A model generated the notes under the pieces. It saw only the letters and a program-made list of their open reading frames with translations. It did not search any database and was not told where the DNA came from. 16,370 bases of DNA from IMG/VR virus record IMGVR_UViG_2724679059_000001; one strand, 5' to 3'. Positions within the stretch are counted from its first letter, which is position 1. Each line of letters opens with the position of its first letter. The stretch is from a virus (Duplodnaviria; Heunggongvirae; Uroviricota; Caudoviricetes). A program made the position numbers and the translations under genes. Below, piece by piece: positions 1 to 16,370 of the stretch.

Positions 1-342
1 CTACATACGACTCTGCTGCTTCTCCGTATGTACACGTTTGACTATCTTATAAATCCATTGCAGCGTCAGATTATATTTCTTCGCTAATTCGGCGTAGTTG
101 CGCCCATCGCACTCGCTATAGATTTGGTAGTCACGCTCCGATGCTCGTCCGGAGATCCCCTTAGGGAAATAAATGCTTTGTCCGCCCCAGTTACGCATCA
201 TTCGGTCGGCAATGGCAAAACCCACATTTTCTGCCGATGAACTGTCGAGATTGATGCTTTCAATCAGAACTTGCGATGCATGAAAAGCCAGGTCGTTAAT
301 GATCTCCGGTGTCCGGGCCATCTCTTTTGATTTTCGTATCAT
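1..342 (-). CDS. Mor/C-family phage transcriptional activator (Mu middle-operon-regulator-like)
   Basis: Complete 113-aa ORF (ATG at 340-342, stop at 1-3) with a GGAG RBS 7 nt upstream on the - strand. C-terminal half (GGQSIYFPKG...DGRNYAELAKKYNLTLQWIYKIVKR) matches the conserved Mor/C helix-turn-helix region from memory. Divergent from the tail operon. Confidence 0.8.
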   Translation of the reverse strand: MIRKSKEMARTPEIINDLAFHASQVLIESINLDSSSAENVGFAIADRMMRNWGGQSIYFPKGISGRASERDYQIYSECDGRNYAELAKKYNLTLQWIYKIVKRVHTEKQQSRM

Positions 343-2247: not shown

Positions 2248-2703
2248 ATGAAAATTTTATCTGCAATGAATTATGTCATGGTCAAATTACGTGATCGGCA
2301 TCCTGAAATGGATATATTTATTTCATCTACGGATGCCCAGAAATATATTCCACAGACACAACAAGTTGCAGTGATTATTAATTATAGCGGTTCTGTCTTT
2401 ACCACACCCGAAAGCAGTGATGCCATCGTGCAACAGCAAATACTCCGCTTAACCGCCACCGTTATTGTTGACAAAAATTGTGACGCGTTAAACGCACTTG
2501 ATTGCATACGCAGCGCATTGGGCGGCCTTCAGCTTCCTGATTGCGATCGTCTGCTTTGGCTTGAAAAAGAAATTAATACGGGTGAGAGCGGCGGTTTCTG
2601 CCGCTACATCCTGGAAATGGCGACCAGCTCGCTGTTTATCGCTGAACAGGAAAGCACGGATCTTCCCCTGCTTACGGAAGTTAACTACGAGGAAACTGAA
2701 TGA
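2248..2703 (+). CDS. phage tail-associated protein (Mu gp37-like, possible tail completion or terminator protein)
   Basis: 151-aa ORF, first gene of the tail block. Its stop overlaps the next start (ATGA at 2700-2703). Family assignment is from gene order and recollection, not a search. Confidence 0.5.
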   Translation: MKILSAMNYVMVKLRDRHPEMDIFISSTDAQKYIPQTQQVAVIINYSGSVFTTPESSDAIVQQQILRLTATVIVDKNCDALNALDCIRSALGGLQLPDCDRLLWLEKEINTGESGGFCRYILEMATSSLFIAEQESTDLPLLTEVNYEETE

Positions 2704-2897
2704 AATACATCTACAACGGCCCGGCAAGCGGCGTCACCCTTGCCGATGGACAAGAAATCTTATTGTGGCCGAACAGTGAAATTGATCTGCCAGAAGACAA
2801 CGAGTGGGTCATGACCATGATTGCCCGCAATCATCTGACTCCTGTCATCACTCAGGAAGAACAAAATAACGTAGAGGAAATTGTACATGGCAGCTAA
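2700..2897 (+). CDS. small conserved phage tail-module protein (Mu gp38-like)
   Basis: 65-aa ORF, translationally coupled on both sides (ATGA overlap upstream; overlaps the sheath start). Acidic protein. Function unknown. Confidence 0.5.
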   Translation: MKYIYNGPASGVTLADGQEILLWPNSEIDLPEDNEWVMTMIARNHLTPVITQEEQNNVEEIVHGS

Positions 2898-4311
2898 TTA
2901 CCTGCACGGTGTAGAAACCATTGAAATTGAAACCGGCCCGCGTCCGGTTAAAGCGGTAAAATCCGCCGTCATCGCTTTAATCGGTACGGCCCCCTGCGGT
3001 CCGGTAAATAAACCAACATTATGCCTTTCTGAAAGCGATGCTGCGCAGTTTGGCTCGACTCAGGCTAACTTTACGATCCCACAGGCACTGAAGGCGATTT
3101 ATGACCACGGTGCCGGTACGGTGGTGGTGATTAACGTGCTGGATCCGGCAAAACATGGCTCCAACATCAGCAATGAGAGTATCACTTTTGACGCTAACAA
3201 CCAGGCGAAGCTCGCTCACCGCAATGTGCGTAACGTGGTACTAAAGCCCTCTTCATCAAATTCATCAACCTTTAACACCGCAGCATTTAGCGTAGATGAA
3301 CAAACAGGCATAATTACCCGTAAAGGAGCCGACATTCCTCCTGGTGCGAAAGTTTGCGCCTATTATTCCTGGTGCGACCCTACAAAGGTCACCGCAGCCG
3401 ATATTATCGGTGCCGTAAATACCGCAGGCGACCGCACGGGGATGAAACTCCTTCAGGACACCTATAACCTGTACGGTTTCTACGCCAAAATCCTGCTTGC
3501 TCCCGTGTTTTGTACGCAAAAATCAGTAACTACTGAGCTGATTGCACAAGCGGAAAAACTCGGTGCGCTTACCTACATTGATGCTCCGATTGGGACGACA
3601 TTCCAGCAGGTATTGGCTGGACGCGGTTCGCAAGGGGCTATCAACTTCAATACCAGCTCTGATCGTGTGCGTTTATGTTACCCACACGTCAAAGTTTACG
3701 ATGGCATCACTAACCAGGAAGTTCTCGAACCACTCTCTTCGCGCGCTGCCGGGCTACGTGCCAAAGTAGACCTCGAAAAAGGTTTCTGGTGGAGCAACTC
3801 AAACCAGGAAATTCAGTGTATTACCGGTATTGAACGTTCGCTTTCTGCAATGATTGATGATCCACAAAGCGAAGTGAATCAGCTCAACGAAAACGGCATT
3901 ACCACTATTTTCAATAGTTACGGTTCTGGTCTGCGCTTGTGGGGCAACCGCACAGCGGCATGGCCTACCGTGACCCATATGCGTAACTTTGAAAACGTTC
4001 GCCGGACAGGCGATGTAATTAATGAGTCAATCCGTTATTTCAGTCAGCAGTATATTGATATGCCGATTAATCAGGCTCTTATTGACGCGCTGACCGAATC
4101 GGTAAATACCTGGGGCCGAAAACTGATTGCCGACGGCGCACTGCTTGGCTTTGAGTGCTGGTACGATCCGGCGCGAAATTCACCGGCTGAACTCAGCGCC
4201 GGGCATTTATTGCTTAGCTATAAATTCACCCCGCCGCCGCCGCTGGAACGTCTGACGTTTGAAACTGAAATTACTTCTGAATATTTAGTCTCTCTGGAGA
4301 GCAATAGCTAA
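2887..4311 (+). CDS. contractile tail sheath protein (P2 FI / Mu L-like)
   Basis: About 474 aa, the size and position expected for a myovirus sheath, immediately before the tube gene. GAGGAAA RBS before ATG 2887; the longest ORF begins at TTG 2881. Confidence 0.85.
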   Translation: MAANYLHGVETIEIETGPRPVKAVKSAVIALIGTAPCGPVNKPTLCLSESDAAQFGSTQANFTIPQALKAIYDHGAGTVVVINVLDPAKHGSNISNESITFDANNQAKLAHRNVRNVVLKPSSSNSSTFNTAAFSVDEQTGIITRKGADIPPGAKVCAYYSWCDPTKVTAADIIGAVNTAGDRTGMKLLQDTYNLYGFYAKILLAPVFCTQKSVTTELIAQAEKLGALTYIDAPIGTTFQQVLAGRGSQGAINFNTSSDRVRLCYPHVKVYDGITNQEVLEPLSSRAAGLRAKVDLEKGFWWSNSNQEIQCITGIERSLSAMIDDPQSEVNQLNENGITTIFNSYGSGLRLWGNRTAAWPTVTHMRNFENVRRTGDVINESIRYFSQQYIDMPINQALIDALTESVNTWGRKLIADGALLGFECWYDPARNSPAELSAGHLLLSYKFTPPPPLERLTFETEITSEYLVSLESNS

Positions 4312-4835
4312 TGGCTGGAAAAATTCAAATTAACCGTATTACCAACGCCAATATTTATCTCGATGGTAATAATCTTTTAGGTCGTGCAACCGAAATTAAA
4401 TTGCCGGATGTCAGTTTAATTATGCAAGAGCATAAAGCACTGGGTATGGTCGGTAAAATCGAACTCCCGGCTGGTTTCGATAAACTGGAGGGGGAAATTA
4501 AATGGAACTCCTTTTATCAGGACGTAATGCGTAAAACGGCAAACCCGTGGCAGGCAGTAGCATTACAGTGCCGCTCCAGTATTGATTGCTATAACTCCCA
4601 GGGGAAAGCGAATCAATTAGCGTTAGTGACACATTTAACCGTGATGTTTAAAAAGAATCCCTTGGGCACATTTAAACAGAATGAAAACCCGGAATTCAGC
4701 AGCGCCTTTGGTTGTACTTATATTAAACAAGTGGTCGATGGTGAAACGCTGCTTGAACTTGATTATATGGCGAATATTTTTCGGGTTAACGGCGTGGATC
4801 AATTAAGTACCTATCGCAATAACATCGGTGGCTAA
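4311..4835 (+). CDS. tail tube protein (P2 FII / Mu M-like)
   Basis: 174-aa ORF; start overlaps the sheath stop (TAATG). Size and position match tube proteins. Confidence 0.8.
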   Translation: MAGKIQINRITNANIYLDGNNLLGRATEIKLPDVSLIMQEHKALGMVGKIELPAGFDKLEGEIKWNSFYQDVMRKTANPWQAVALQCRSSIDCYNSQGKANQLALVTHLTVMFKKNPLGTFKQNENPEFSSAFGCTYIKQVVDGETLLELDYMANIFRVNGVDQLSTYRNNIGG

Positions 4836-4839
4836 ATTA

Positions 4840-4859
4840 TTCGGGGCTACGGCCCCGAA
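4840..4859 (+). other. intra-operon RNA stem-loop after the tube gene
   Basis: Perfect 8-bp stem TTCGGGGC / GCCCCGAA with a 4-nt loop, directly after the tube stop; no U-tract follows. Possible mRNA stabiliser or partial attenuator after the abundant sheath and tube genes. Confidence 0.4.
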
Positions 4860-4885
4860 CTTCGCAACATAAATAAGGATACAAA

Positions 4886-5203
4886 ATGAAAGAGCATTAT
4901 ATCTTACAGTTCCCATTTACGTCGGCAGCAGGAAATACTATCGACTCGCTGCAATTACGTCGCCTGAAAGTAAAAGATATGCGCAACGCGCGCCGGATCA
5001 GCGAAAAACCCGAAGAGTGGGATGAACCGCTAATGGCGGCGATGACCGGACTGGTGCCAGAAGATTTAGCTGAAATGGATTTGCTGGATTACCAGGCATT
5101 GCAGAAACGATTTCAATCCATGCTTACCGTGGTTACAGAATCCTCCCCAGCTATGGCAGGCAATGGCGCTACTGGCGAGATGGTTTCGCTTTCCACCCAG
5201 TGA
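4886..5203 (+). CDS. tail assembly chaperone (P2 gpE-like)
   Basis: 105-aa acidic protein between the tube and tape-measure genes, the canonical chaperone position. AAGGA RBS. Confidence 0.6.
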   Translation: MKEHYILQFPFTSAAGNTIDSLQLRRLKVKDMRNARRISEKPEEWDEPLMAAMTGLVPEDLAEMDLLDYQALQKRFQSMLTVVTESSPAMAGNGATGEMVSLSTQ

Positions 5204-5392
5204 GATAGACGCGCTCACCATAGATGACTTTAGCAACTGGCTGGATGAAGCCAGCGACCAAATAAAGATCGAATATGGCTCGCAGACCTGATGTCTGCGA
5301 GTTCTTCAAAGCCCGCCAGGTTTATTTCTTCCCAGCCCCTTTTTTAGAAAAATAACCAGTGGGCCATTATCAATAATTAAAGAGAAACAATT

Positions 5393-6274
5393 TTGGCCAA
5401 CGATATTATTACCCAGCTTCAGGCGCGTAATGAGACGTTGACGCAGGCAATAGCCCGTTACGGCTCACTCAACGCCAGAACTTTGTTAGCTCTCTCTTCT
5501 CAGCAAGCGACAGTAATCAAACTAACGCAGCAACTTGCCGATTCTGCTCTCCGCCTGGAGGAAAATAGCCGGAACCGCGCTGATCTAATGGAGAAAACCC
5601 AAACATTTGCCGGGCAATTTAGCAAGGTATTCAATGTTGAAGCCCCCGACTGGAAGTTGCCATATGAGTTCCAGGACAACATGGTCAATATGGCGACCAA
5701 AGGTGGGATGAATGCTACAACCCGCGAGACGCTCAGCCTTAATCTGCGCGACTGGAGCATGGATTTTAACCAGCAGCAGACCACCTTACAGAACGCAGCC
5801 CAAACGCTGATCGAAGGCAATTTGTCGTCGATGCAGGATCTCAACCGTTATATGCCGGAGATCGCCAAAGCTGCCACCGCCACGCGCGAAAGTGCTGAAA
5901 CGTGGGCGAATGCCGCGCTCGCGACTCATGATCGATTGAATATTGCCCCGGAAAATTTCCACGCCACGCAAAACATGATGTATGGCATTAGCAAAAGCGG
6001 TGGGCCTGCCGTTGCCGAACAAACGCAGTGGATAGAGAAATTTGCAGGTAAAACCGGCGCTCAGGGTCTGGAAGGTATGGCTGAACTGACCGCCATCATG
6101 CAGATCGCCATGAAAAACGGGGCCAGCGCCAGTGCGGCGGCGGAGAATTTCGACCACTTTCTGCAAACCACCTTTTCGAAAAAACCGATAACTGGTTCGC
6201 CAGCCAGGGCGTTGATCTGCAAGGCTCTCTGCTTGAGCATCAGCAAAACGGTATGGGTGTTAGCGAAGCCATGA
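5393..6274 (+). CDS. tail tape measure protein, N-terminal part (gene apparently frameshifted)
   Basis: Ala/Gln-rich helical protein in the tape-measure position, starting at TTG 5393. The frame ends at 6274 while the continuation runs in another frame from an A6 tract at 6179-6184. Confidence 0.65.
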   Translation: MANDIITQLQARNETLTQAIARYGSLNARTLLALSSQQATVIKLTQQLADSALRLEENSRNRADLMEKTQTFAGQFSKVFNVEAPDWKLPYEFQDNMVNMATKGGMNATTRETLSLNLRDWSMDFNQQQTTLQNAAQTLIEGNLSSMQDLNRYMPEIAKAATATRESAETWANAALATHDRLNIAPENFHATQNMMYGISKSGGPAVAEQTQWIEKFAGKTGAQGLEGMAELTAIMQIAMKNGASASAAAENFDHFLQTTFSKKPITGSPARALICKALCLSISKTVWVLAKP

Positions 6275-7767
6275 CTCATATCGTGCAAATGCAGCTTGAG
6301 AAGATGAATCCGGCGATCCTCGGCACCTTCAAACGCACTATGCAGATTGAAGATTTATCTGCTCGCAGCAATGCGCTGCAATCGATGGTGACGCAATTTA
6401 ATCTGGGCGAAATGTTCGGCGATGCGCAAACTGTGGAATTCCTGGCACCTATGCTGGCGAATATGGAGGAATATCGCCAGTTAAAAGCCTCTGCCATGCA
6501 AGCCAGCAGCAAGAATCTGATTGATGCCGACTTTTCTGCGCAAATGGCCTCGCCCATTGAACAGACTAAAGCGTTACAGCTGGCGTTAAATGATTTATGG
6601 CTCAGCATTGGCTTGCAATTAATGCCGCTGATTGGCGAGCTGGCACAAAGCCTTACGCCGGTTGTTCGCCAGTTCAGCGCCTGGCTACGTGAGCACCCGG
6701 CACTGGTGCAAAACATTGCGAAAATCGTCGGGGCGATTTGGCTGTTTAACGGCGCGCTGAATGTTTTAAAACTGGGCGCGAACTTCATCGCCTCGCCGTT
6801 TATTCGTCTGGTCGATATCTTCCTGAAAGTCAGGGCAAGTCTGGCACTCACAGGCGGGGCAAGTAAGATGCTATCAGCGGTTAAGTCATTGGGTGGCGGT
6901 GCAAAATGGCTAACGCAACTGCTTGGTCGTGGCCTGATTGGCGCACTGAAACAGGCAGGTCAGACCGTCTTCTGGTTGGGTAGGGTTTTATTGATGAATC
7001 CCATTGGTCTGGTCATCACTGCGATTGCGGGCGCTGCTTATCTGATTTATCGCAACTGGGAGCCTATCTCCAGGTTCTTTTCTACCATCTGGCAACGTAT
7101 CACCACGGCCTTTGACGGCGGCATTGCAGAAATTTGTCGGTTAATTCTCGACTGGTCGCCGCTGGAGTTGTTCTATAGCGCCTTTTCCAGTGTGATGAAT
7201 TGGTTTGGTGTTGAAATGCCTGCGAGTTTTAGCGAGTTCGGCAGCAATCTTCTGGCTAGCCTGGCCGACGGCATAATGAATGCCTTCCCCGCTCTGAAAG
7301 GCATTATTGATCAGGTCAAAAACGTCATCCCAGACTGGCTAAAAACCACGATGGGTATTAGTACAGAAGGATCGGCTACAGCTATTACAAGCACGACTAA
7401 TACCGCATCCGTCTCCCCCGCGAGCGTTGTTCCAGGCGTTGCCGGTGCGATTTTAACGCCTCCGGTGGGGAAACAACTCGCGCCATCCAGTAAAACGACA
7501 ACGCCGCCATCGGCACCTGCGGCAAAAAATACAGCCGCCAAACCCGCATTGGCCTCTTTACCTGGTAAATCCGTAACCAAACCGGCGACGCTACCTTCCC
7601 GTTCCTCTGGAAAAGTTCAGGTGAATTTTTCGCCACAGATTACCGTGCAGGGTAACGGACAAAACACCACTAAAGAGATTCAGAACGTGTTGACGATGAG
7701 TAAACGCGAACTTGAAAGAATGATTAACGACGTAATGGCGCAACAACAGCGCCGGGGGTATGCCTGA
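6253..7767 (+). CDS. tail tape measure protein, C-terminal part
   Basis: Frame open from 6085; contains hydrophobic, glycine-containing segments and a Thr/Pro/Ala-rich tail typical of tape measure proteins. Ends with TGATG overlap onto the next gene. Adding one A at 6179-6184 fuses it to the upstream ORF. Confidence 0.65.
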   Translation: MGVSEAMTHIVQMQLEKMNPAILGTFKRTMQIEDLSARSNALQSMVTQFNLGEMFGDAQTVEFLAPMLANMEEYRQLKASAMQASSKNLIDADFSAQMASPIEQTKALQLALNDLWLSIGLQLMPLIGELAQSLTPVVRQFSAWLREHPALVQNIAKIVGAIWLFNGALNVLKLGANFIASPFIRLVDIFLKVRASLALTGGASKMLSAVKSLGGGAKWLTQLLGRGLIGALKQAGQTVFWLGRVLLMNPIGLVITAIAGAAYLIYRNWEPISRFFSTIWQRITTAFDGGIAEICRLILDWSPLELFYSAFSSVMNWFGVEMPASFSEFGSNLLASLADGIMNAFPALKGIIDQVKNVIPDWLKTTMGISTEGSATAITSTTNTASVSPASVVPGVAGAILTPPVGKQLAPSSKTTTPPSAPAAKNTAAKPALASLPGKSVTKPATLPSRSSGKVQVNFSPQITVQGNGQNTTKEIQNVLTMSKRELERMINDVMAQQQRRGYA

Positions 7768-8720
7768 TGTATGCCGTTTTAGGAGAGATTGAATTTAAGG
7801 TTGTCGCATTCTGGGACGGCTTTAAAAGCACAATGGGCGTGGATTACGCCACACATGCCCGTATAGAAGGCAAACCCGGTGTGCAGTTTATTGGCGATAA
7901 GCTGGATATGCTGGCGCTGGAATTTTCCCTGCACAGCCAGTTTTGCCAGCCCACAACAGAGCTTAATCGACTGCGTGAAGCCATGCTTGCTCACAAGGCG
8001 ATGGCACTGGTATTTGGCAATGGCGATTATCGCGGCTGGTTTGTAATTACGGAGCTAACCGCCACCCACCAGCACACCGATCCCTGGGGCAATGTGATTG
8101 CCCAAAACGGAACGATGTCGCTCCAGGAGTACACCGGCGATCCTAAAAATCCACTTTTACCTCCGGCGATTACCACCCAGGAGCCTAACATTGAGGAAAA
8201 GGCGAGCGATTTTCCCGACATGGTGGAGTCCTGGTTTGATCAGATATTAAACGCCATCGAAGAAGGTATGCGTAAGGCCAAAGAGATGCTGGATGAACTG
8301 ACACAAGCCATTGAAGATATTAAAAAAACGGTGGCAAAAGTGAAAGCAATGATTAAAGAGGCCAAAGTGTTAAAAGAAAAGTGTGAAAAGATAATTACGT
8401 CATTGAAAAAGACAATCGACGCCATCGAAACCCTGTTTAAACAGCCAATGGATCTGCAAACGCTGGCAGGACTCCCAAAAGCGTTGTCGGCGCAGATTAA
8501 AACTTTACTGGGTAACATGCCAGGTATCCGGGACTGCGCCAATGACGCCAGTACACTGGTTGACCATGCTCAGGCGCTTTTCGACGACATTACCAGCGAC
8601 ATCGCCGAAGCGACGTTTGATAAAGCCGCAACGTTGGTTGATCAGGCACGAACAACGGTACAACAAACCACTCCCACAGTGAGCCAGCTTGCTGCCGCGA
8701 CCATTACGAGGATCTGGTGA
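7767..8720 (+). CDS. tail protein with P2 gpU-like N-terminal domain and Lys/Glu-rich helical C-terminal extension
   Basis: 317-aa ORF between the tape-measure and gpX/gpD genes, the gpU position in P2-type order. C-terminal ~170 aa is K/E-rich and encoded by a visibly AT-rich stretch (about 8220-8480). Confidence 0.55.
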   Translation: MYAVLGEIEFKVVAFWDGFKSTMGVDYATHARIEGKPGVQFIGDKLDMLALEFSLHSQFCQPTTELNRLREAMLAHKAMALVFGNGDYRGWFVITELTATHQHTDPWGNVIAQNGTMSLQEYTGDPKNPLLPPAITTQEPNIEEKASDFPDMVESWFDQILNAIEEGMRKAKEMLDELTQAIEDIKKTVAKVKAMIKEAKVLKEKCEKIITSLKKTIDAIETLFKQPMDLQTLAGLPKALSAQIKTLLGNMPGIRDCANDASTLVDHAQALFDDITSDIAEATFDKAATLVDQARTTVQQTTPTVSQLAAATITRIW

Positions 8721-8929
8721 TGCGATACCTTGAACATATCACCACCGACGGCGAACGCTGGGATAATCTGGCATGGCATTACTACGGTGATGCGCTGGCT
8801 TATGAACGCATAATCGTCGCCAATCCACATGTCGCCATTTACCCGGTACTGCCTTCCGGTATTCAGCTCATTATTCCGGTCATTTCCGTCAATAAAACCT
8901 TATCGGAGATCCCACCATGGCTGAGATAA
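8720..8929 (+). CDS. tail protein X (P2 gpX-like, LysM-like)
   Basis: About 70 aa with the YYGD...ANP...LP.G pattern typical of gpX; overlaps the flanking genes. Confidence 0.7.
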   Translation: MRYLEHITTDGERWDNLAWHYYGDALAYERIIVANPHVAIYPVLPSGIQLIIPVISVNKTLSEIPPWLR

Positions 8930-9957
8930 GCGTAACTGGTGGCGTCTTTGCCACACTCACGCCCATTTTTACCCTCTGGTATGGGCATAAAGATATCACT
9001 TATGACATCACACCCTATGTCACCAGCATCAGTTACCACGACAGCATCAAAAACGAGTCAGATACCATCGCGATTACACTGGATGACACCGATGGACGCT
9101 GGATAAAAGAGTGGTATCCCGGCAAAGGCGATACGCTGGCGCTGCATATGGGTTATCAGGGGGAAAAGCTGCTCGATTGTGGTCAGTATATTATTGATAA
9201 AATTGATATTTCAGCGCCACCTTCTACGGTAAATATTGATGGCATCGCCACTTCCGTCAATCAGGCGCTGCGTACCCGTAACAGCCAGGGCTTTGAAGAA
9301 ACGACGCTTTCGGCTATCGCCAGCCGTATCGCCCAAACGCACGGTCTGAAACTGGTGGGCAAAATCGAGCCGCTCACCATCGACCGGGTAACGCAGTATG
9401 GTGAAACCGATGTCGGATTTCTCAAGCGCCTGGCCAGCGAATATGGCTATGCGGTAAAGGTGACCACCAAAGAACTGATTTTTTCGCATTTACCCACGCT
9501 GCGCTGCCTGGCGCCGGTAAAAACGATCGACCGCAAAGACGTTTCGCATTTCACCTTCAAAGATACCATTAACCGTATCTACAAAAATGCCACCGTACAG
9601 CATCAAAATAGTAAGAAAAAAGAACTGGTTATCTACACCCACGACAGCCAGCAAAAACCGTCTACCCGTGGAGTCGGCACCAGTGCCGACACGCTAAAAC
9701 TGAACAGTCGGGCGCCGGACGTTGGCGCGGCACAGGCAAAGGCCAACGCCGCGCTCGACAGCCACAACGAATATCAACAAACCGGAACGCTCAGGATGAT
9801 GGGCTGCCCGGAACTGACGGCGGGCAATAAAATTGAACTGACCGATTTTGGCGTGCTTTCCGGTCAGTGGCTGATTGATAAATCGACTCACAGTTTTGTG
9901 CGCAGCGGCTATACCACTGAAATCGACGTGTCACGCGGGCCAGCGACCAGCCAGTAA
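8917..9957 (+). CDS. baseplate hub / tail protein D (P2 gpD-like)
   Basis: 346-aa ORF directly after the gpX-like gene, the conserved X-D order. Size and position fit the hub protein. Confidence 0.8.
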   Translation: MAEISVTGGVFATLTPIFTLWYGHKDITYDITPYVTSISYHDSIKNESDTIAITLDDTDGRWIKEWYPGKGDTLALHMGYQGEKLLDCGQYIIDKIDISAPPSTVNIDGIATSVNQALRTRNSQGFEETTLSAIASRIAQTHGLKLVGKIEPLTIDRVTQYGETDVGFLKRLASEYGYAVKVTTKELIFSHLPTLRCLAPVKTIDRKDVSHFTFKDTINRIYKNATVQHQNSKKKELVIYTHDSQQKPSTRGVGTSADTLKLNSRAPDVGAAQAKANAALDSHNEYQQTGTLRMMGCPELTAGNKIELTDFGVLSGQWLIDKSTHSFVRSGYTTEIDVSRGPATSQ

Positions 9958-9966
9958 GGAGGAAAT

Positions 9967-10668
9967 ATGAAAGGAGTAACCCGTCAAACGGGGATTATCA
10001 GCGATATTGACGAAACCAGCGTTCGGGTGCGAGTCACGCTTCCGGAGTGTGACAATCTGAAGAGCAACTGGCTTGCGGTACTTCAACGCAATTCCCAGGA
10101 CAATAAAGACTACTGGCTACCGGATATGGGCGAGCAAGTGGAAGTTCTGCTGGACAATAACGGTGAAGATGGCGTGGTGCTGGGCGCAGTTTATTCTACG
10201 GTTGACACCGCGCCTGTGGCCTCGCGCGATAAACGTTACGTCCAGTTTTCTGATGGCGCAGCGTTTGAATATGACCGCAGCACCCACCAGCTGACGATTA
10301 ACGGCGGTATCGAGAAAATCGTGATTGAGGTTATCGACAGTACCCGCCTGACATCACCCAACGTTGAGATTAAAGCCCAACAGGTCACCGTGACTTCCGA
10401 TACCGTCGATATTAAAGCGACCGATGTCAGCATCGACGCCACTAAGGTCGATGTTAAAGCGGCAGCAGTGACGGTAGATGCGCCCATGAGCACCTTTACT
10501 GGCAATGTCACGGTAATGAAAAAACTCACCTGGCTTGGCGGGATGGCAGGAAGTGGAGGCATCGGTAACGCCGCCACGATAACTGGCAATGTCAACGTGA
10601 TCGGCAACGTTCAGGCCAGCGGCGCATTGCAGGACAGCGGTGGCAACTCCAACCACCATACACACTGA
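9967..10668 (+). CDS. baseplate central spike (P2 gpV / T4 gp5-like)
   Basis: Perfect AAGGAGG RBS. N-terminal OB-like region followed by beta-helix repeats (VTVTSDTVDIKATDVSIDATKVDVKAAAVTVDAP) and a His-rich C-terminus (NSNHHTH), consistent with a metal-binding spike apex. Confidence 0.85.
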   Translation: MKGVTRQTGIISDIDETSVRVRVTLPECDNLKSNWLAVLQRNSQDNKDYWLPDMGEQVEVLLDNNGEDGVVLGAVYSTVDTAPVASRDKRYVQFSDGAAFEYDRSTHQLTINGGIEKIVIEVIDSTRLTSPNVEIKAQQVTVTSDTVDIKATDVSIDATKVDVKAAAVTVDAPMSTFTGNVTVMKKLTWLGGMAGSGGIGNAATITGNVNVIGNVQASGALQDSGGNSNHHTH

Positions 10669-10673
10669 CGTTT

Positions 10674-10703
10674 AACCCGCCTGATGGCGGGTTTTCTCTT
10701 TTT
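10674..10703 (+). terminator. rho-independent terminator inside the tail cluster, between spike and wedge genes
   Basis: Stem AACCCGCC (10674-10681) / GGCGGGTT (10686-10693) with loop TGAT, followed by the T-rich run TTCTCTTTTT, 6 nt after the spike stop. Confidence 0.6.
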
Positions 10704-10766
10704 AATCAATCAGTTTTCTAAATCGCTTTAATATCGCCACAGCCCGTTCAGGGCGAAAATACCCTC

Positions 10767-11126
10767 ATGAACACAAAAACACGACCCTCAACGCTGCACT
10801 GGCAACCGGCCTTGCAGCGGCCTGAAGAATACGTCTGCGGACTGGATGATATTCACCAGGCAATACACATCATTCTGCGCACACCGCGCGGCAGTGATCC
10901 CCACAGACCGCTGTTTGGCAGCAACTTGTGGCACTACATCGATTACCCCATCGAGCGGGCAATTCCGCATGTGGTACGGGAGTCGGTGGAAGCCATCCGC
11001 CAGTGGGAGCCGCGCTGTCGGTTGCTGAAGGTGACACCAGTAATCGACGGCGAACATCTGACGTTACGTGTGCAATGGCGCGCCGCTGACGGCGTTATCA
11101 ACTCAACGGAGGTGTTATGGCGATAG
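10767..11126 (+). CDS. baseplate wedge protein (GPW / gp25 family)
   Basis: 119-aa ORF with gp25-like motifs (ILRTPRGSDPHRPLFGSNL...WEPR). Confidence 0.85.
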   Translation: MNTKTRPSTLHWQPALQRPEEYVCGLDDIHQAIHIILRTPRGSDPHRPLFGSNLWHYIDYPIERAIPHVVRESVEAIRQWEPRCRLLKVTPVIDGEHLTLRVQWRAADGVINSTEVLWR

Positions 11127-12232
11127 CCGAACCCAATTTTATTGACCGCGATCCTGCGCAAATTACCAGTGAGATGATTGCGCAATACGAAGATGCCAGC
11201 GGTAAAAAACTCTATCCGGCACAGGCTGAGCGGTTGCTCATCGACCTGTTTGCCTATCGTGAAAACCTTGTACGCATCGCCATTCAGGAAGCGGCGAAAC
11301 AGAACCTGGTCGCGTATTCCCGCGCGCCAATGCTGGATTATTTAGGGGAGTTGGTGGGCGTTCACCGTTTGCCTGCGCAGCCGGCAAAAACGACGTTGCA
11401 GTTTTCGGTCGTCAGCGCGTATACCAGCAATATCCTGATTCCCCAGGGAACGCGGGCCAGTGCCTCTGATAGCGTGATGTTCGCCACCGATGAAGATGTT
11501 CTGCTTCCGGCCAGGAGTTTGCATATCGCCGTTCCTGCCACCAGCCTCGCAGCAGGTGAACAGGGTAACGGCTGGCAGCCTGCACAAATTAGCGCACTGG
11601 TCGACAGGATTGGTCATTATGACATCAACGTAACCAACCTGACTGCGTCAACGGGCGGCTGCGGTGAAGAGAGCGATGACGCATTGCGCCAGCGTATCCA
11701 ACTGGCACCAGAAAGCTTTAGTAATGCGGGCAGCTATGGTGCCTACCGCTTTCATACGCTTTCTGTTAGCCAGTCGATTATTGACGTTGCAGTACTGGGG
11801 CCGGACGAGGGATTGCCAGAAGGCTGCGTGGAGATCTACCCGCTAACTCTGAACGGACTGCCGGGAATAGAACTGCTCGCGCAAATTGAACAGGAGGTTA
11901 GCAAGGAGAAAAAACGTCCGCTGACCGACAAAGTGAGTGCGAAATGCGCTCTTCGAGTGCCATATGAGATCCGTGCGCAGCTAACGCTGTTTACCACCGC
12001 CGATCAGGAGACAACGCTGGCTGCAGCGCGTAAAGCGATTAGCCTCTGGACGCAACAGCGGCAGAAACATCTGGGGCAGGACATTGTGCCAAACCAGATA
12101 ATCAAAGTGTTACAGGTCGATGGCGTCTATGACGTTGCGCTGAATATGCCTACAAAACGTATTTTGCAGGCGCATGAGTGGGCGGAATGCACCGCAATAG
12201 ACGTCACGATTGCCGGAGTCAGCGATGGATAA
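11117..12232 (+). CDS. baseplate protein J (P2 gpJ / T4 gp6-like)
   Basis: 371-aa ORF in the W-J-I order; overlaps both neighbours. Confidence 0.85.
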   Translation: MAIAEPNFIDRDPAQITSEMIAQYEDASGKKLYPAQAERLLIDLFAYRENLVRIAIQEAAKQNLVAYSRAPMLDYLGELVGVHRLPAQPAKTTLQFSVVSAYTSNILIPQGTRASASDSVMFATDEDVLLPARSLHIAVPATSLAAGEQGNGWQPAQISALVDRIGHYDINVTNLTASTGGCGEESDDALRQRIQLAPESFSNAGSYGAYRFHTLSVSQSIIDVAVLGPDEGLPEGCVEIYPLTLNGLPGIELLAQIEQEVSKEKKRPLTDKVSAKCALRVPYEIRAQLTLFTTADQETTLAAARKAISLWTQQRQKHLGQDIVPNQIIKVLQVDGVYDVALNMPTKRILQAHEWAECTAIDVTIAGVSDG

Positions 12233-12857
12233 ATTGCTGCCACCGCCGCCGCTTGCCAGCGATGAGCGTTTTTCGATTCTGGCAAATATCGCCGCCGAGC
12301 GTTTTGCCCAACTCGATCTGACGGCGTTGATGGTTTATCTGATCGACCAGGTTGATGCTTCGGCATTACCAGCCCTTGCAGAACAATTTCACGTTCAGGG
12401 GCTGGAAGGTTGGTTATTTACCACCGATGAGCGGGAGAAACGCGAGTTAATTAAACAAGCCATTGAACTGCATAAATATAAAGGAACAATTTGGGCGGTG
12501 CGGCGGGTGCTGGAAATACTCTCATTACCAGGAACTATTTCAGAATGGTTTGAATATGGGGGAAGGGCTTATTTTTTTAAGGTGGATATAGCGCTGGTGG
12601 ATAAAGGCCTGGATGAAAACCTTTTCAATGATTTGGTAGAACTCATTCATGAATATAAAAACACACGTTCAAAACTGGAAGCATTAATCGTCTGGATCAT
12701 TAACCAAAGTGCTATTCCTGTTATTGGCTGTGCACTTTATGGTGGTGAACTGACGACGGTTTTACCTTTCCAGATACGGGAAGTACAGCACAACACATCG
12801 ATTTATTACGGAACAGGGCAATGGAGCCTTGAAATTACATCTATTTACCCGGAGTAA
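12225..12857 (+). CDS. tail protein I (P2 gpI-like)
   Basis: N-terminal LLPPPPLASDERFSILANIAAERF and a KGT motif match the gpI family from memory. ATG 12225 overlaps the J stop; the longest ORF starts at TTG 12210. Confidence 0.8.
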   Translation: MDKLLPPPPLASDERFSILANIAAERFAQLDLTALMVYLIDQVDASALPALAEQFHVQGLEGWLFTTDEREKRELIKQAIELHKYKGTIWAVRRVLEILSLPGTISEWFEYGGRAYFFKVDIALVDKGLDENLFNDLVELIHEYKNTRSKLEALIVWIINQSAIPVIGCALYGGELTTVLPFQIREVQHNTSIYYGTGQWSLEITSIYPE

Positions 12858-12859
12858 TT

Positions 12860-14518
12860 ATGGACAATGAGTTTTATACTCTACTCACCGACAGGGGAAT
12901 GGCAAAAATTGCCAATGCTCTGGCGGATAAAAAACAGCTTCATCTACAAAAAATGGCTGTTGGTGACAGCGGAGGACAATATTATGAACCCACCGTCAGC
13001 CAAACTAAATTACGCCATGAAGTATGGCGCGGTGATTTAAATACATTAACAGTTGCACCCAATAACCCTAACTGGTTAATTGCGGAACTCGTGCTGCCCG
13101 AAAATATCGGCGGCTGGTATGTACGTGAAGTCGGCGTTTTTGATACCGATGGTGAACTCATTGCTATCGGTAAATTCCCGGAGTCGTATAAACCACTATT
13201 ACCCGGCGGCAGCGGTAAGCAAGTTTGCATTCGCCTGATTATGGAAGTTTCCAACACGACTGCGGTAACACTCACCGTTGACCCCAGTATTGTACTGGCA
13301 ACACGGGATTATGTTGATTCACAACTGGATGAACATGAGCGTTCGACTAATCATCCTGATGCTACGTTAACGCAAAAAGGCTTTACACAGTTGAGTAACG
13401 CCACTGACAGTGATGACGAAACCAAAGCGGCTACGCCAAAAGCGGTGAAAGCGGCAATGATTGAGGCTCGAAATCATCGTCATACCTGGAGTCAGATTAC
13501 TGATATACCAGATGGTACGCTGACACAAAAAGGGATTGTGAAGCTTAATAACGCGACAGACAGCAACAGTACGACGGAGGCGGCGACACCGAGCGCGGTG
13601 AAGGCGGCATATGACCTGGCGAATAGTAAGGCTGCGGGAAACCATACTCACCCATGGGGACAGATTACGGGTGTTCCAGACGGCACCCTGTCGCAAAAAG
13701 GGATTGTGAAGCTTAATAACGCGACGGATAGCAACAGTACGACGGAGGCGGCGACACCGAGCGCGGTGAAGGCGGCAATGGATAAGGCAAAAACTGCAGC
13801 TCCAGCTAATCATACCCACACTAGTTTTTATACTACAAATGGAACATTTATAGTTCCTGAGGGCGTAACAATATTATTTGTGGAAATTATGGGCGGCGGA
13901 GGTGGGGGGGCCGGAGGAGCACAATCATCACATTATGAAGCCTGCGGAGGTAATGCAGGAGAATTGATTGTTGATTACTTAAACGTGGCACCAGGCCAGC
14001 ATTTTTCAGTAAAGATCGGAGCTGGAGGTAATGGAGGTCCTTTTTGGAACAATCCACCTGTTTCACAAATAAAGTATTCGTATGATAAAACAGAGACAAC
14101 ACAAAAAAGCTTTGATGGTGGAGACTCTTCGTTTTCTAATCTAACTGCAAAAGGTGGCCATGGAGGATATAACATTTATCACTCTAACACTACGCAGCCT
14201 TATATAAAATTCAGTGACGATCCTAAAGGTACTCCACCAAATGCAATACCGTCATCTGCAGAATTTTATCCTGGAAAGAATGGTGAAAATTCTATATATG
14301 GAAAGGGAGGGGCTTCAGGTACTGTTATTACAGAAAACCTAAGTAATGGTGGAAAAAAAGCAGTAATGGCAAAGCCAACAGCAGCAACAGGTTATGGTTC
14401 TGGAGGAGCTGGGGGATCTTATTTACCTCCTTTTCAATATAAAAATAATGAGTTAACAAATTTAGGCAATACTAGCGGAACAAAAGGTGCCTCTGGCTTC
14501 GTAAAAATATCATGGTAA
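12860..14518 (+). CDS. tail fiber protein: P2 gpH / R-pyocin-fiber-like N-terminus, tandem fiber repeats, glycine-rich C-terminal receptor-binding domain
   Basis: N-terminal ~150 aa (LLTDRGMAKIANALA...MAVGDSGGQ...AELVLPENIGGWYVREVGVFDTDGELIAIGKFPESYKP...ATRDYVDSQL) matches the conserved baseplate-attachment domain of P2 gpH-type fibers. Three fiber repeats (TLTQKGIVKLNNATDS...AATPSAVKAA) follow, then an AT-rich Gly-rich C-terminus. Confidence 0.85.
   Translation: MDNEFYTLLTDRGMAKIANALADKKQLHLQKMAVGDSGGQYYEPTVSQTKLRHEVWRGDLNTLTVAPNNPNWLIAELVLPENIGGWYVREVGVFDTDGELIAIGKFPESYKPLLPGGSGKQVCIRLIMEVSNTTAVTLTVDPSIVLATRDYVDSQLDEHERSTNHPDATLTQKGFTQLSNATDSDDETKAATPKAVKAAMIEARNHRHTWSQITDIPDGTLTQKGIVKLNNATDSNSTTEAATPSAVKAAYDLANSKAAGNHTHPWGQITGVPDGTLSQKGIVKLNNATDSNSTTEAATPSAVKAAMDKAKTAAPANHTHTSFYTTNGTFIVPEGVTILFVEIMGGGGGGAGGAQSSHYEACGGNAGELIVDYLNVAPGQHFSVKIGAGGNGGPFWNNPPVSQIKYSYDKTETTQKSFDGGDSSFSNLTAKGGHGGYNIYHSNTTQPYIKFSDDPKGTPPNAIPSSAEFYPGKNGENSIYGKGGASGTVITENLSNGGKKAVMAKPTAATGYGSGGAGGSYLPPFQYKNNELTNLGNTSGTKGASGFVKISW
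13369..13790 (+). repeat. in-frame tandem repeat array inside the tail fiber gene (3 copies, about 168-bp period)
   Basis: 13526-13609 and 13694-13777 are 82/84 nt identical; a more diverged copy lies at about 13369-13450. Each encodes a T..KG(I/F)..L.NATDS...AATP.AVKAA unit followed by an H-x-H motif. Confidence 0.75.
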
Positions 14519-14524
14519 TTAAAA

Positions 14525-15139
14525 ATGACAAAATATGCTTGTTTTGATCCTGAAACATTTATCGTTCTGGACTGGATCGATACAGAACACTACAACTATC
14601 CTAAAGTAGAACATTTAGTTGAAATAACTGATCAGCAATGGCAGACATATGCGAAAGCTAATATCCCAATTTGGATTAACTGTGAAGATTTATCCTTTAT
14701 CTCTACGCCACCACCAGATAGATTTCACAAACTAAAAAAAGGAGAATGGATAGTTGATACAGATTCAATGCTTAAATTTATTTCAGAAATAAAAGCGGAT
14801 ATAATAAGAAGAATAAAATCCAAACGGGATTACGTCACAACCGATTACATCATCATCAACAACCATCACTTCCACAGTGATACAAACAGCCGTATCCAAC
14901 AGCTCTCACTCACAAAAATGGGAGCGGAGAAAAAAATCCCTCCAGGGTTAATGTGGAAAACTAAAAATAACGGTCTGATCGAGTTAACCAACGAGATCGC
15001 CGCCCAGTTTGAATCGGTAACAATGGATCACGATATGCGCCTGTTCGCCAATGCCCAGCACCATATCGCGGCGGTGGAAGCTCTGGACGATATTCAGGCG
15101 GTGCTCGACTACGATTATTCAACAGGCTGGCAAGCATGA
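14525..15139 (+). CDS. tail fiber assembly protein (P2 gpG / Mu U-like chaperone)
   Basis: 204-aa ORF immediately after the fiber. The C-terminal half (FANAQHHIAAVEALDDIQAVLDYDYSTGW) resembles the conserved Tfa region; the N-terminal half is AT-rich like the fiber tip. Confidence 0.8.
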   Translation: MTKYACFDPETFIVLDWIDTEHYNYPKVEHLVEITDQQWQTYAKANIPIWINCEDLSFISTPPPDRFHKLKKGEWIVDTDSMLKFISEIKADIIRRIKSKRDYVTTDYIIINNHHFHSDTNSRIQQLSLTKMGAEKKIPPGLMWKTKNNGLIELTNEIAAQFESVTMDHDMRLFANAQHHIAAVEALDDIQAVLDYDYSTGWQA

Positions 15140-15591
15140 GTAAAACCACTGTCTGGCTCGCTTGTTATAAGGGCCGAACAGAGCACCGTGGTATTGCCCG
15201 ACTGGCTGACTGGCTTACCCGTAAAATCACGCGCGGTAGTTATTCCCACTGTGAATTAGCCGTTAAGCATGGTGAAAAGAGTTACCTTTGTTACTCTGCA
15301 TCACTGCGCGATCGCGGTGTACGCGGAAAGATAATGCCATTGCCAGCGGATAAGTGGGATATGCTGCCGCTCCAGGCCAGCCTTCAGGACGTGGAAGCGT
15401 TTTTCCATAAACATGATGGCAAAAAATATGATTGGCGCGGCGCGCTTGGAATTATTACCGGTAATAAAGAACAGCGTGAACGCCTGTTTTGCAGCGAATT
15501 TTGTGCCGAATTTCTGCAATTAAAGGAGAGTTGGCGCTATTCCCCAAACCACTTGTACGCTTTAGTCAGTAGCTGGCAATATCAGCCGTAA
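15136..15591 (+). CDS. hypothetical Cys/His-rich protein; cargo gene translationally coupled to the tail-fiber assembly gene
   Basis: 151-aa ORF whose ATG overlaps the Tfa stop (ATGA at 15136-15139). Contains SHCE and FCSEFC motifs; I do not recognise the family with confidence. Confidence 0.5.
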   Translation: MSKTTVWLACYKGRTEHRGIARLADWLTRKITRGSYSHCELAVKHGEKSYLCYSASLRDRGVRGKIMPLPADKWDMLPLQASLQDVEAFFHKHDGKKYDWRGALGIITGNKEQRERLFCSEFCAEFLQLKESWRYSPNHLYALVSSWQYQP

Positions 15592-15596
15592 AATAA

Positions 15597-15617
15597 CGCC
15601 GGGCTTCACGCCCGGCG
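15597..15617. terminator. hairpin terminator shared by the convergent genes
   Basis: Perfect 8-bp stem CGCCGGGC (15597-15604) / GCCCGGCG (15610-15617) with a 5-nt loop. On the - strand it is followed by TTATTTTA, so it reads as an intrinsic terminator for the nucleotidyltransferase gene; it sits 6 nt after the + strand stop at 15591. Confidence 0.55.
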
Positions 15618-16370
15618 CATTACCGTCTGGTACAGTAAACTATCCAGTTCTTTAACGTCCCCTTCCCGGCTGTCTGGTAACAGCGGAGGAATTTCCCCGC
15701 GCGCCAGTTCCGCACGAATAAACGCATGTAACAAAGGACGGCGCAGTCCATATTCCGCTTCACCCGCACGCTGTTTACGCTCCAGCAATTCATCTATTTC
15801 TGCGCGTAATGCCGCATCCAACTCACTTCCCGCCAGCAATTCGGAAAAACGCATTGGCGGTACACCTTTTCCCGCTTCAACCCAACGAACGGCCAGCAGC
15901 GGGCGCAGCACGTAAAAGTATTTTTTCAGTCGAACTTCATCGCCCTGCAAATATCCGCGGAAGTTTTTCTGCGCCATCGAATAGTAATGCCAACGCGCAC
16001 GCAGCGGAGAAAACCACGTTGGGACCATTGCCTTAAGCGCCGTTATCGTTTCTTCATCTTGTTGATAGACCACCGGAGAATCCAGCCATTCTATCAGCGT
16101 CGGGTTCGCGCCTTTCAATAATCCCAGCGCCTTACGCCACTCCCAACCGGAAACATCTAACTCGTCATCGATGGGCAGCTCGATAACATCGCGCGGTGAC
16201 TCTACTCGCAGATACCATTCCAGCGGGTGAACATACAAAAACCGTACATCGTAGTCGCTGTCGGGCGAGGCAAATCCCCAACCGCGACTCCCTGATTCAC
16301 AGGCGTACAATACTTTCACATCATACCGCCGTTCAATTTCTTTTAACTGCTGCGATACCCTTTCGCGCAT
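15606..16370 (-). CDS. nucleotidyltransferase-domain protein (pol-beta superfamily)
   Basis: 254-aa ORF; ATG is the last three bases of the window, stop at 15606-15608. N-terminal G-S-x10-D-x-D motif (CESGSRGWGFASPDSDYDVRF) is the classic pol-beta nucleotidyltransferase signature, followed by a helical C-terminal domain. Confidence 0.75.
   Translation of the reverse strand: MRERVSQQLKEIERRYDVKVLYACESGSRGWGFASPDSDYDVRFLYVHPLEWYLRVESPRDVIELPIDDELDVSGWEWRKALGLLKGANPTLIEWLDSPVVYQQDEETITALKAMVPTWFSPLRARWHYYSMAQKNFRGYLQGDEVRLKKYFYVLRPLLAVRWVEAGKGVPPMRFSELLAGSELDAALRAEIDELLERKQRAGEAEYGLRRPLLHAFIRAELARGEIPPLLPDSREGDVKELDSLLYQTVMRRA

Follow-up and report, generated by a model that had tools for sequence, protein, structure and literature searches.

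A probable two-part specificity cassette spanning the fibre tip and chaperone N-domain of a tailocin-like cluster beside lysC in Escherichia coli

The virus record IMGVR_UViG_2724679059_000001 of IMG/VR (16,370 nt; hereafter the window, meaning the whole stretch of DNA that was analysed) corresponds almost exactly to one 16.4-kb chromosomal element of Escherichia coli. Here we discuss its tail fibre gene and the chaperone gene that starts six nucleotides after the fibre stop codon. An earlier sequence-only reading had marked positions 13800-14860 as an AT-rich mosaic specificity cassette covering the fibre tip and the N-terminal half of the chaperone; our analysis supports that interpretation as essentially right, with corrections given where they arise. 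The genes and domains concerned are listed below, where GC3 is the GC content of third codon positions and TNF is tumour necrosis factor.

12860..14518, plus strand: fibre gene, 552 residues (open reading frame and Pfam)
Fibre residues 1-150: collar-fibre N-domain (PF12571, E 6e-61)
Fibre shaft: three Phage_fiber_2 repeats (PF03406)
13470..13805, plus strand: two direct-repeat units of 168 nt each, encoding the shaft repeat with TEAATPSAVKAA (repeat search)
13802..14518, plus strand: fibre tip, residues 315-552, TNF-like and glycine-rich, GC3 0.22
Fibre residues 325-551: Gly_rich_2 tip (PF21722, 45.4 bits against a cutoff of 24.3)
14525..15139, plus strand: DUF4376 chaperone gene, 204 residues (open reading frame and Pfam)
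14525..14815, plus strand: chaperone N-half, residues 1-97, a beta-rich domain (residues 1-77) and the start of a long helix, GC3 0.24
14816..15139, plus strand: chaperone C-half, the constant DUF4376 domain, GC3 0.58, 90-94% identical across the E. coli cassette types

The fall in base composition noted in the sequence-only reading is borne out by measurement. GC content over 13800-14860 is 0.378, against 0.501 for the tail genes at 2248-12857 and 0.486 for the whole window, and the lowest-GC stretch of 1061 bp in the window starts at 13927. The contrast lies mainly at third codon positions: GC3 is 0.218 in fibre residues 315-552 and 0.237 in chaperone residues 1-97, against 0.583 in chaperone residues 98-204 and 0.42-0.66 in the other tail genes, where no 97-codon stretch outside the block falls below 0.33. 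By maximum likelihood, the GC3 change-points are codon 309 of the fibre (nt 13787) and codon 98 of the chaperone (nt 14819), and neither statistic was reached in any of 5000 permutations. Composition is uniform neither by GC nor by GC3. The block holds what had been proposed for it, namely the fibre C-terminal domain and the first 97 or so residues of the 204-residue protein; its right limit has to be moved from 14860 to nearer 14815-14843. Further low-GC patches of the window lie at 343-878 (the Mor-holin intergenic region, GC 0.34), at 1950-2400 after the small membrane-protein gene, and at 4200-4950 (the tube gene, GC3 0.42); none of these has a GC3 as low as that of the block.

The composition borders coincide with homology breakpoints. 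We compared the window, as type A, with three other E. coli alleles of the locus, B (L010), C (L001/L007) and D. Nucleotide identity to allele B is 95% up to 13777, fades until 13921, is absent from 13921 to 14843 and is then 92% to the end of the window. Identity to allele C, 97-98% as far as 12728, drops to about 71% over the N-terminal part of the fibre, is absent from 13818 to 14815, and resumes at 98.5%. The junctions, and the identities of the parts within and around them, are as follows.

13777..13921, plus strand: left junction zone, where the match to allele B is gradually lost over the conserved beginning of the glycine-rich domain; GC3 change-point at 13787
14815..14843, plus strand: right junction, where homology resumes (allele C at 14815, allele B at 14843); GC3 change-point at 14819
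Allele B: J 99%, chaperone C-half 94%, orf151 97%, tip 33%, chaperone N-half 33%
Allele C: J 87%, chaperone C-half 94%, orf151 97%, tip 27% over 52 residues, chaperone N-half none
Allele D: J 97%, chaperone C-half 90%, orf151 95%, tip none, chaperone N-half none

The fold class of the tip co-varies with the class of the chaperone N-domain. Types A and B pair a Gly_rich_2 tip with a beta-rich N-domain, type C pairs a Collar/His-x-His (HxH) tip with a Caudo_TAP N-part (30.8 bits) fused to DUF4376, and type D pairs a short tip of 75 residues with another N-domain. The relatives of the tip and chaperone N-half differ from those of the flanks, which are 87-99% identical among the alleles, and the proposal of a mosaic fibre-tip and chaperone-N cassette is supported. 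Judged by these alignments, at least four interchangeable cassettes (A-D) exist at this E. coli site. We consider it highly probable that the block from about 13787 to 14818 is a two-part specificity cassette, tip plus chaperone N-domain, which is exchanged as one unit.

Type C shows a second border at about 12728, in the C-terminus of gpI, beyond which the fibre N-domain is 64% and gpI 71% identical, and a GC dip of the window (0.39-0.42 at 12450-13050) lies near it. The GC3 of fibre residues 1-150, and of gpI, is 0.42. These features suggest a separate attachment module, composed of the C-terminus of gpI and the N-terminus of the fibre, with a nested second mosaic border; the fibre N-domain, which had been thought to look like the rest of the cluster, does so only in part.

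All five glycine-rich stretches quoted in the sequence-only reading are found in the 552-residue fibre, and an alignment of nine tips reveals conserved glycine motifs separated by hypervariable segments; those least like Salmonella are encoded at 13925-14300. When the tip was used in a word-indexed protein search, glycine words dominated the outcome (13 matches), and an exhaustive representative search was used instead. The AlphaFold2 model of the tip, built with 66 homologues, has a predicted local distance difference test score (pLDDT) of 87.3 and a predicted template-modelling score of 0.85. When the profile of the 66 tips was compared with the PDB, it matched gp24 of cyanophage Pam3 (7yfw/7ypx) at E 2e-18 over positions 22-226, and Bxb1 gp33 at 2e-7. 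The tip has the same fold as the Pam3 gp24-type TNF-like plus glycine-rich tip and, because the family profile matches at E 2e-18, we take it to be homologous to that domain, beyond mere resemblance.

The second of the 168-nt units ends at the left junction of the cassette. The window's fibre has three Phage_fiber_2 repeats in 552 residues, as opposed to four in 608 residues in every E. coli type A locus examined (strain S10 and several loci from other assemblies), and no complete genome matched a query of 11000-16370 in a single block. This is consistent with the window having lost a single 168-nt unit in frame, between repeats that are nearly identical. A 150-residue open reading frame on the minus strand, at 13367-13819, was set aside as a by-product of the repeat-rich coding strand.

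The chaperone had been assigned to the Tfa proteins, and this assignment falls. Residues 88-196 match DUF4376 (PF14301) at 50 bits against a cutoff of 25, and the Pfam scan gave no match of the window's chaperone to the Caudo_TAP model (PF02413); the protein is of the DUF4376 type and not a member of the Caudo_TAP/Tfa family. It does share traits of Tfa, in that the gene lies directly 3′ of the fibre gene, the N-domain is variable and the C-domain is conserved. The structure model (pLDDT 92.7) comprises a beta domain (residues 1-77) followed by helices and hairpins, and the right junction of the cassette falls inside a predicted helix at residues 79-105. In 120 database chaperones the two halves are decoupled in their identity to the window: E. 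coli proteins are 31-33% identical or unrelated in the N-half and 92-94% identical in the C-half, and Salmonella proteins 52-60% and 75-81%, respectively. The view that the chaperone C-terminus resembles the rest of the cluster holds, both in its conservation across the alleles and in its GC3.

In some type A genomes, L005 among them and probably strain MS14386 too, the chaperone gene is interrupted by the insertion sequence IS1. In L005 (3906-4672) it sits exactly at the right junction of the cassette (window 14808-14816) with a 9-bp target duplication, GAAGAATAA. A preference of IS1 for AT-rich targets is well known, and its position at the junction may for that reason be a coincidence.

The rest of the element consists of the following genes.

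1-342, minus strand: Mor-family activator (Pfam)
Plus strand, after Mor, in order: holin, SLT lytic transglycosylase, small membrane protein, Gp37, sheath, tube (Pfam)
Plus strand, continuing: tail assembly chaperone, tape measure, gpU, X, D, V, W, J and I, ending at 12857 (Pfam)
15136..15591, plus strand: orf151, 151 residues, the final gene of the element (PHROG 1128, E 4e-58)

In RefSeq loci identical to the window, lysC abuts Mor, and orf151 is followed by an RlaP nucleotidyltransferase, slipin, yjbD and rluF. Pfam scans of the open reading frames, together with these RefSeq flanks (lysC on one side, RlaP/slipin/yjbD on the other), reveal no head, packaging, replication or integration genes in the window. 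Because these are lacking, the element is, as far as its gene content tells, a headless contractile-tail cluster of the P2/Mu type, resembling an R-type tailocin and adjoining lysC. Its contractile-tail and lysis genes are complete. Not all of the structural genes are intact, since the tape-measure gene (5393-7767) is split by a run of six A residues at 6179-6184 into two reading frames, 5393-6274 and 6253-7767. Strain S10 (NZ_CP010229) has seven A residues where the window has six, and an 86-bp stretch of the window around this run has an exact match in none of the 195 complete genomes carrying the region. Either the short run reflects a sequencing error in the homopolymer, or this strain has an inactivating frameshift of its own.

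The Mor activator, the Gp37-family protein (2248-2703; a family named after Burkholderia phage BcepMu) and the SLT-type lysin together hint at descent of the cluster from a BcepMu/Mu-like transposable phage and not from P2 itself. Literature searches found no paper on an E. coli tailocin at lysC, nor any on Gly_rich_2/PF21722; the E. coli/Salmonella tail cluster at lysC is apparently so far undescribed. The gene orf151 follows the chaperone gene in every allele, that is, in E. coli types A-D and in Salmonella. The PHROG that it matches is labelled 'enoyl-CoA hydratase/carnithine racemase-like' in the moron category, and the protein has no match in Pfam, NCBIfam or PADLOC; the last two databases yielded nothing of use for the element in general. 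Type D loci (L018, 6120-7262) carry an additional gene for a GT4-family glycosyltransferase between orf151 and RlaP, which could be a surface modification linked to the fibre type and possibly serves self-protection.

When sheath and tube were used as queries, the cluster was found in 196 of 5426 complete E. coli genomes (about 3.6%). Among complete genomes, cassette A was counted 40 times, B 6 times, C 149 times and D not at all, and the sheath is at least 99% identical in 44 of the 196 genomes and 95-99% identical in the other 152. A scan of genome contigs with the chaperone returned one locus only and so gives no view across species; this locus (L003, JAEZCC010000043.1) is a 6.7-kb contig labelled 'MAG: Bacillota bacterium' that is about 99% identical to window 11000-16332, and it probably stems from an enterobacterium resembling E. 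coli and was mis-binned into a Bacillota metagenome-assembled genome (MAG). In Salmonella enterica (L013, GCA_008178425.1) there is a remnant, in which only W, J, I, fibre, chaperone and orf151 are left; it adjoins a GT_STM0557_N glycosyltransferase gene, upstream of yjbD/rluF. Salmonella holds several distinct Gly_rich_2 tip variants (P0005, P0007, P0014 and P0016).

How might a two-part cassette work? The tip is predicted to be a TNF-like beta-sandwich with a lattice of glycine-rich strands, whose variable loops would touch a receptor on the target cell. By analogy with Pam3 gp25 and Mu Tfa, the chaperone N-domain would grip its particular tip during folding. The constant DUF4376 C-domain would form a trimer and align three fibre chains in register, while the three N-domains hold the TNF and glycine-rich parts of the nascent chains until the tip has folded. 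Since both partners must match, tip and chaperone N-domain would be inherited and exchanged together. Recombination could take place in the conserved flanks, on one side in the final Phage_fiber_2 repeat of the shaft and on the other where DUF4376 begins, such that shaft repeats and DUF4376 act as constant adaptors. We infer that the tip so presented binds the receptor and sets the target range, and thereby which cells a particle would kill.

The age of cassette A bears on the first alternative, that this strain recently acquired the block from a low-GC donor, whether a phage or a bacterium such as Proteus or Providencia. The sharp borders and a GC3 of 0.22-0.24, far below that of the host-like flanks, are what such an event would leave behind. 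The same cassette with the same borders is present, however, in an IMG/VR contig (L016) that is collinear with the window at about 90% nucleotide identity, and in the Salmonella remnant, collinear at about 77%. The former is probably of Escherichia origin, since the two halves of its chaperone show 88% and 92% identity, as do those of a database protein from E. albertii. Synonymous divergence (dS) from this contig is 0.23-0.32 in the cassette, similar to the 0.28-0.63 of the flanks; relative to Salmonella, dS is saturated, with values above 1 throughout, and this comparison indicates collinearity only. Low GC3 is likewise shared: values for the tip and chaperone N-half are 0.24 and 0.20 in the IMG/VR contig and 0.35 and 0.28 in Salmonella, and over all cassette types plus the Salmonella orthologue they range over 0.22-0.37 for tips and 0.20-0.39 for chaperone N-halves, against 0.5-0.7 for flanks. 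Neither the 50,697 phage records nor IMG/VR contain a close relative of the cassette beyond copies of this locus. A tblastn search of the phage records with tip plus chaperone N-half returned nothing beyond a 'Salmonella phage' fragment of 6 kb, 37-41% identical, and the nearest tip variants are all from Salmonella. We regard recent acquisition as unlikely. Because low GC3 is common to all types and cassette A has co-diverged with its flanks, AT-richness does not mark a recent import; cassette A does not appear to be one, and its low GC3 is better seen as a standing property of exchangeable modules that carries no date stamp.

The opposite alternative is that nothing was ever exchanged, and that an ancestral tip and chaperone N-half evolved fast in place under diversifying selection. 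This would accommodate the collinearity of the type A cassette with its flanks in both the IMG/VR contig and Salmonella, the flank-like dS relative to the former together with a nonsynonymous-to-synonymous ratio (dN/dS) three to five times higher (0.21-0.30 in the cassette, 0.03-0.13 in the flanks), and the homology that types A and B retain in both parts. What it does not accommodate are types C and D: in these, tip and chaperone N-half both have folds that are not homologous to those of type A, yet the flanks are 87-99% identical and the borders are defined to within tens of bases. A fold is not converted into a different one by divergence, and in-place evolution, already contradicted for A versus C and D, is distinctly unlikely as a general account. 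It is highly improbable that the dip in composition merely follows from the amino-acid content of a protein rich in Asn, Lys and Ile, or in Gly: GC1 (0.41) and GC2 (0.32) of the chaperone N-half are low as well, but the contrast is greatest at third positions, the tip combining a GC2 of 0.506, raised by its Gly codons, with its very low GC3, and the change-points coincide with the homology breakpoints. 

We give almost no credence to a switchable, invertible or shufflon-like host-range system in the manner of the Mu G segment or carotovoricin ein, even though carotovoricin, a related tail cluster, uses an invertase (PMC13195805): no open reading frame of the window has an invertase or recombinase domain by Pfam, there are no inverted repeats in 12700-15700 that could act as crossover sites like those of Mu G, P1 C or ein, the window has no second tip or chaperone, and orf151 ends the element, RlaP following. 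The earlier statement that neither invertase nor alternative cassette is present is confirmed by the open reading frames, Pfam and the repeat search; as both an invertase and a spare cassette are lacking, each strain would have a single fixed specificity.

Exchange of tip and chaperone N-domain as one unit is the reading that we retain, though several observations weigh against it or its consequences. In the IMG/VR contig, cassette A and its flanks have diverged together, and in Salmonella they are collinear; this allele is old in its lineage. The searches identified no donor and no sequenced phage with a close relative. Cassette type correlates with backbone haplotype, the sheath classes of 44 and 152 genomes being close to the 40 of type A and the 155 of B plus C (a comparison of totals, not of genome-by-genome overlap), and because of this correlation exchanges do not appear to be frequent on the time-scale of E. 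coli strains. Finally, the tape-measure gene of the window is frameshifted, and the particle may not be made at all.

A wider proposal, which taken as a whole we hold to be doubtful, joins two ideas. One is that low GC3, instead of being a foreign signature that is wearing off, is kept up: either the cassettes are constantly exchanged with an AT-rich pool of receptor-binding modules common to the enterobacteria, or selection maintains it, for example through slow translation that aids chaperone-assisted folding or through control by H-NS. The other is that the cluster is a functional, uncharacterised R-type tailocin of E. coli and Salmonella, whose killing spectrum is set by one of at least four cassettes on a constant DUF4376 module.

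As a principle, the transfer of fibre tips in company with their cognate chaperone domains has been established for a long time, and Mu Tfa and Pam3 supply a structural rationale for it. New here are the apparently undescribed cluster, the junction inside a DUF4376 chaperone, the chimeras of a Caudo_TAP N-part with DUF4376, and the Pam3/ALK-like tip on a P2-type fibre, with which an enterobacterial tail fibre is seen to bear this TNF/glycine-rich binding domain. For swaps of receptor specificity on a P2-type fibre, nature has defined a base-pair-resolved pair of junctions, one where the final shaft repeat ends and one in the helix before DUF4376. The DUF4376 C-domain can evidently serve very different tips, including those of natural chimeras with a classical Tfa N-part. 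If the particles are active, the three cassette types in the complete E. coli genomes would be determinants of strain-level competition and parts for engineered tailocins.

In P2 (gpH/gpG), Mu (S/U) and λ (Stf/Tfa), a fibre C-terminus moves together with the chaperone from one backbone to another that is otherwise unrelated, and R-pyocins can be retargeted through fibre and chaperone, specificity being set by the fibre tip with its chaperone. The window differs from P2, Mu and λ in that its chaperone is not a Caudo_TAP protein, only the N-half belongs to the cassette, and no segment is invertible. A natural chimera of a Caudo_TAP N-part and DUF4376 is seen in the type C allele of the locus. 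Among tailocins, recombination of tip and chaperone at fibre loci was recently documented for the carotovoricin of Pectobacterium (PMC13195805). Like the window, carotovoricin and kosakonicin (PMC6629978) combine a conserved cluster and fibre N-terminus with a variable fibre C-terminus and homologous recombination. The window differs from these and from R-pyocins in belonging to E. coli/Salmonella, in having one fixed cassette without an invertase, and in the position of its junction inside the chaperone gene.

The sequence-only reading had likened the tip to T-even gp38 adhesins, and one part of this stands, the alternation of glycine motifs with hypervariable segments at the fibre's distal end, as in S16 gp38 (PDB 6F45). 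No sequence-profile or fold search of the window's tip recovered gp38, which moreover is a separate adhesin with an N-terminal gp37-attachment domain, whereas the window's tip is the C-terminus of the fibre chain itself. We reject membership of the gp38 group, and the analogy is one of architecture only. The glycine-rich (TG) domain of ALK/LTK (PDB 7LRZ, 7NX3) belongs to a metazoan receptor ectodomain and is 13-19% identical to the tip, with no functional link.

For the DUF4376 part, the nearest parallels are gp27 of Alteromonas phage V22 and gp9 of phage A5. DUF4376 proteins are fibre chaperones experimentally required in V22, and distant phages are reported to share the pairing of a fibre with such a chaperone (PMC7289586, PMC10579305). 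Their N-terminal strands have been modelled against the fibre head, as partners that co-evolve with it, and their helical body, like those of intramolecular chaperones, forms a trimer (PMC7289586, PMC10579305). The window resembles them in having DUF4376 in the C-half and the gene after the fibre gene; the fibres of V22 and A5 have knob tips, not TNF/glycine-rich ones, and no within-gene junction is described there.

Among the closest known systems of fibre plus chaperone is gp24/gp25 of cyanophage Pam3 (PDB 7YPX/7YFW; PMC9608196). In the cryo-EM structure, the variable N-terminal beta-sandwich of the chaperone binds the fibre's TNF-like domain and its glycine-rich one, and the chaperone's conserved helical C-domain trimerises; glycine-rich loops from the TNF-like domain form a layered lattice with a hypervariable distal tip (PMC9608196). 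The authors of that work regard gp24's glycine-rich domain as structurally like that of S16 gp38, and note the same modular logic in Mu Tfa, with a non-conserved, fibre-binding N-domain and a conserved C-domain (PMC9608196).

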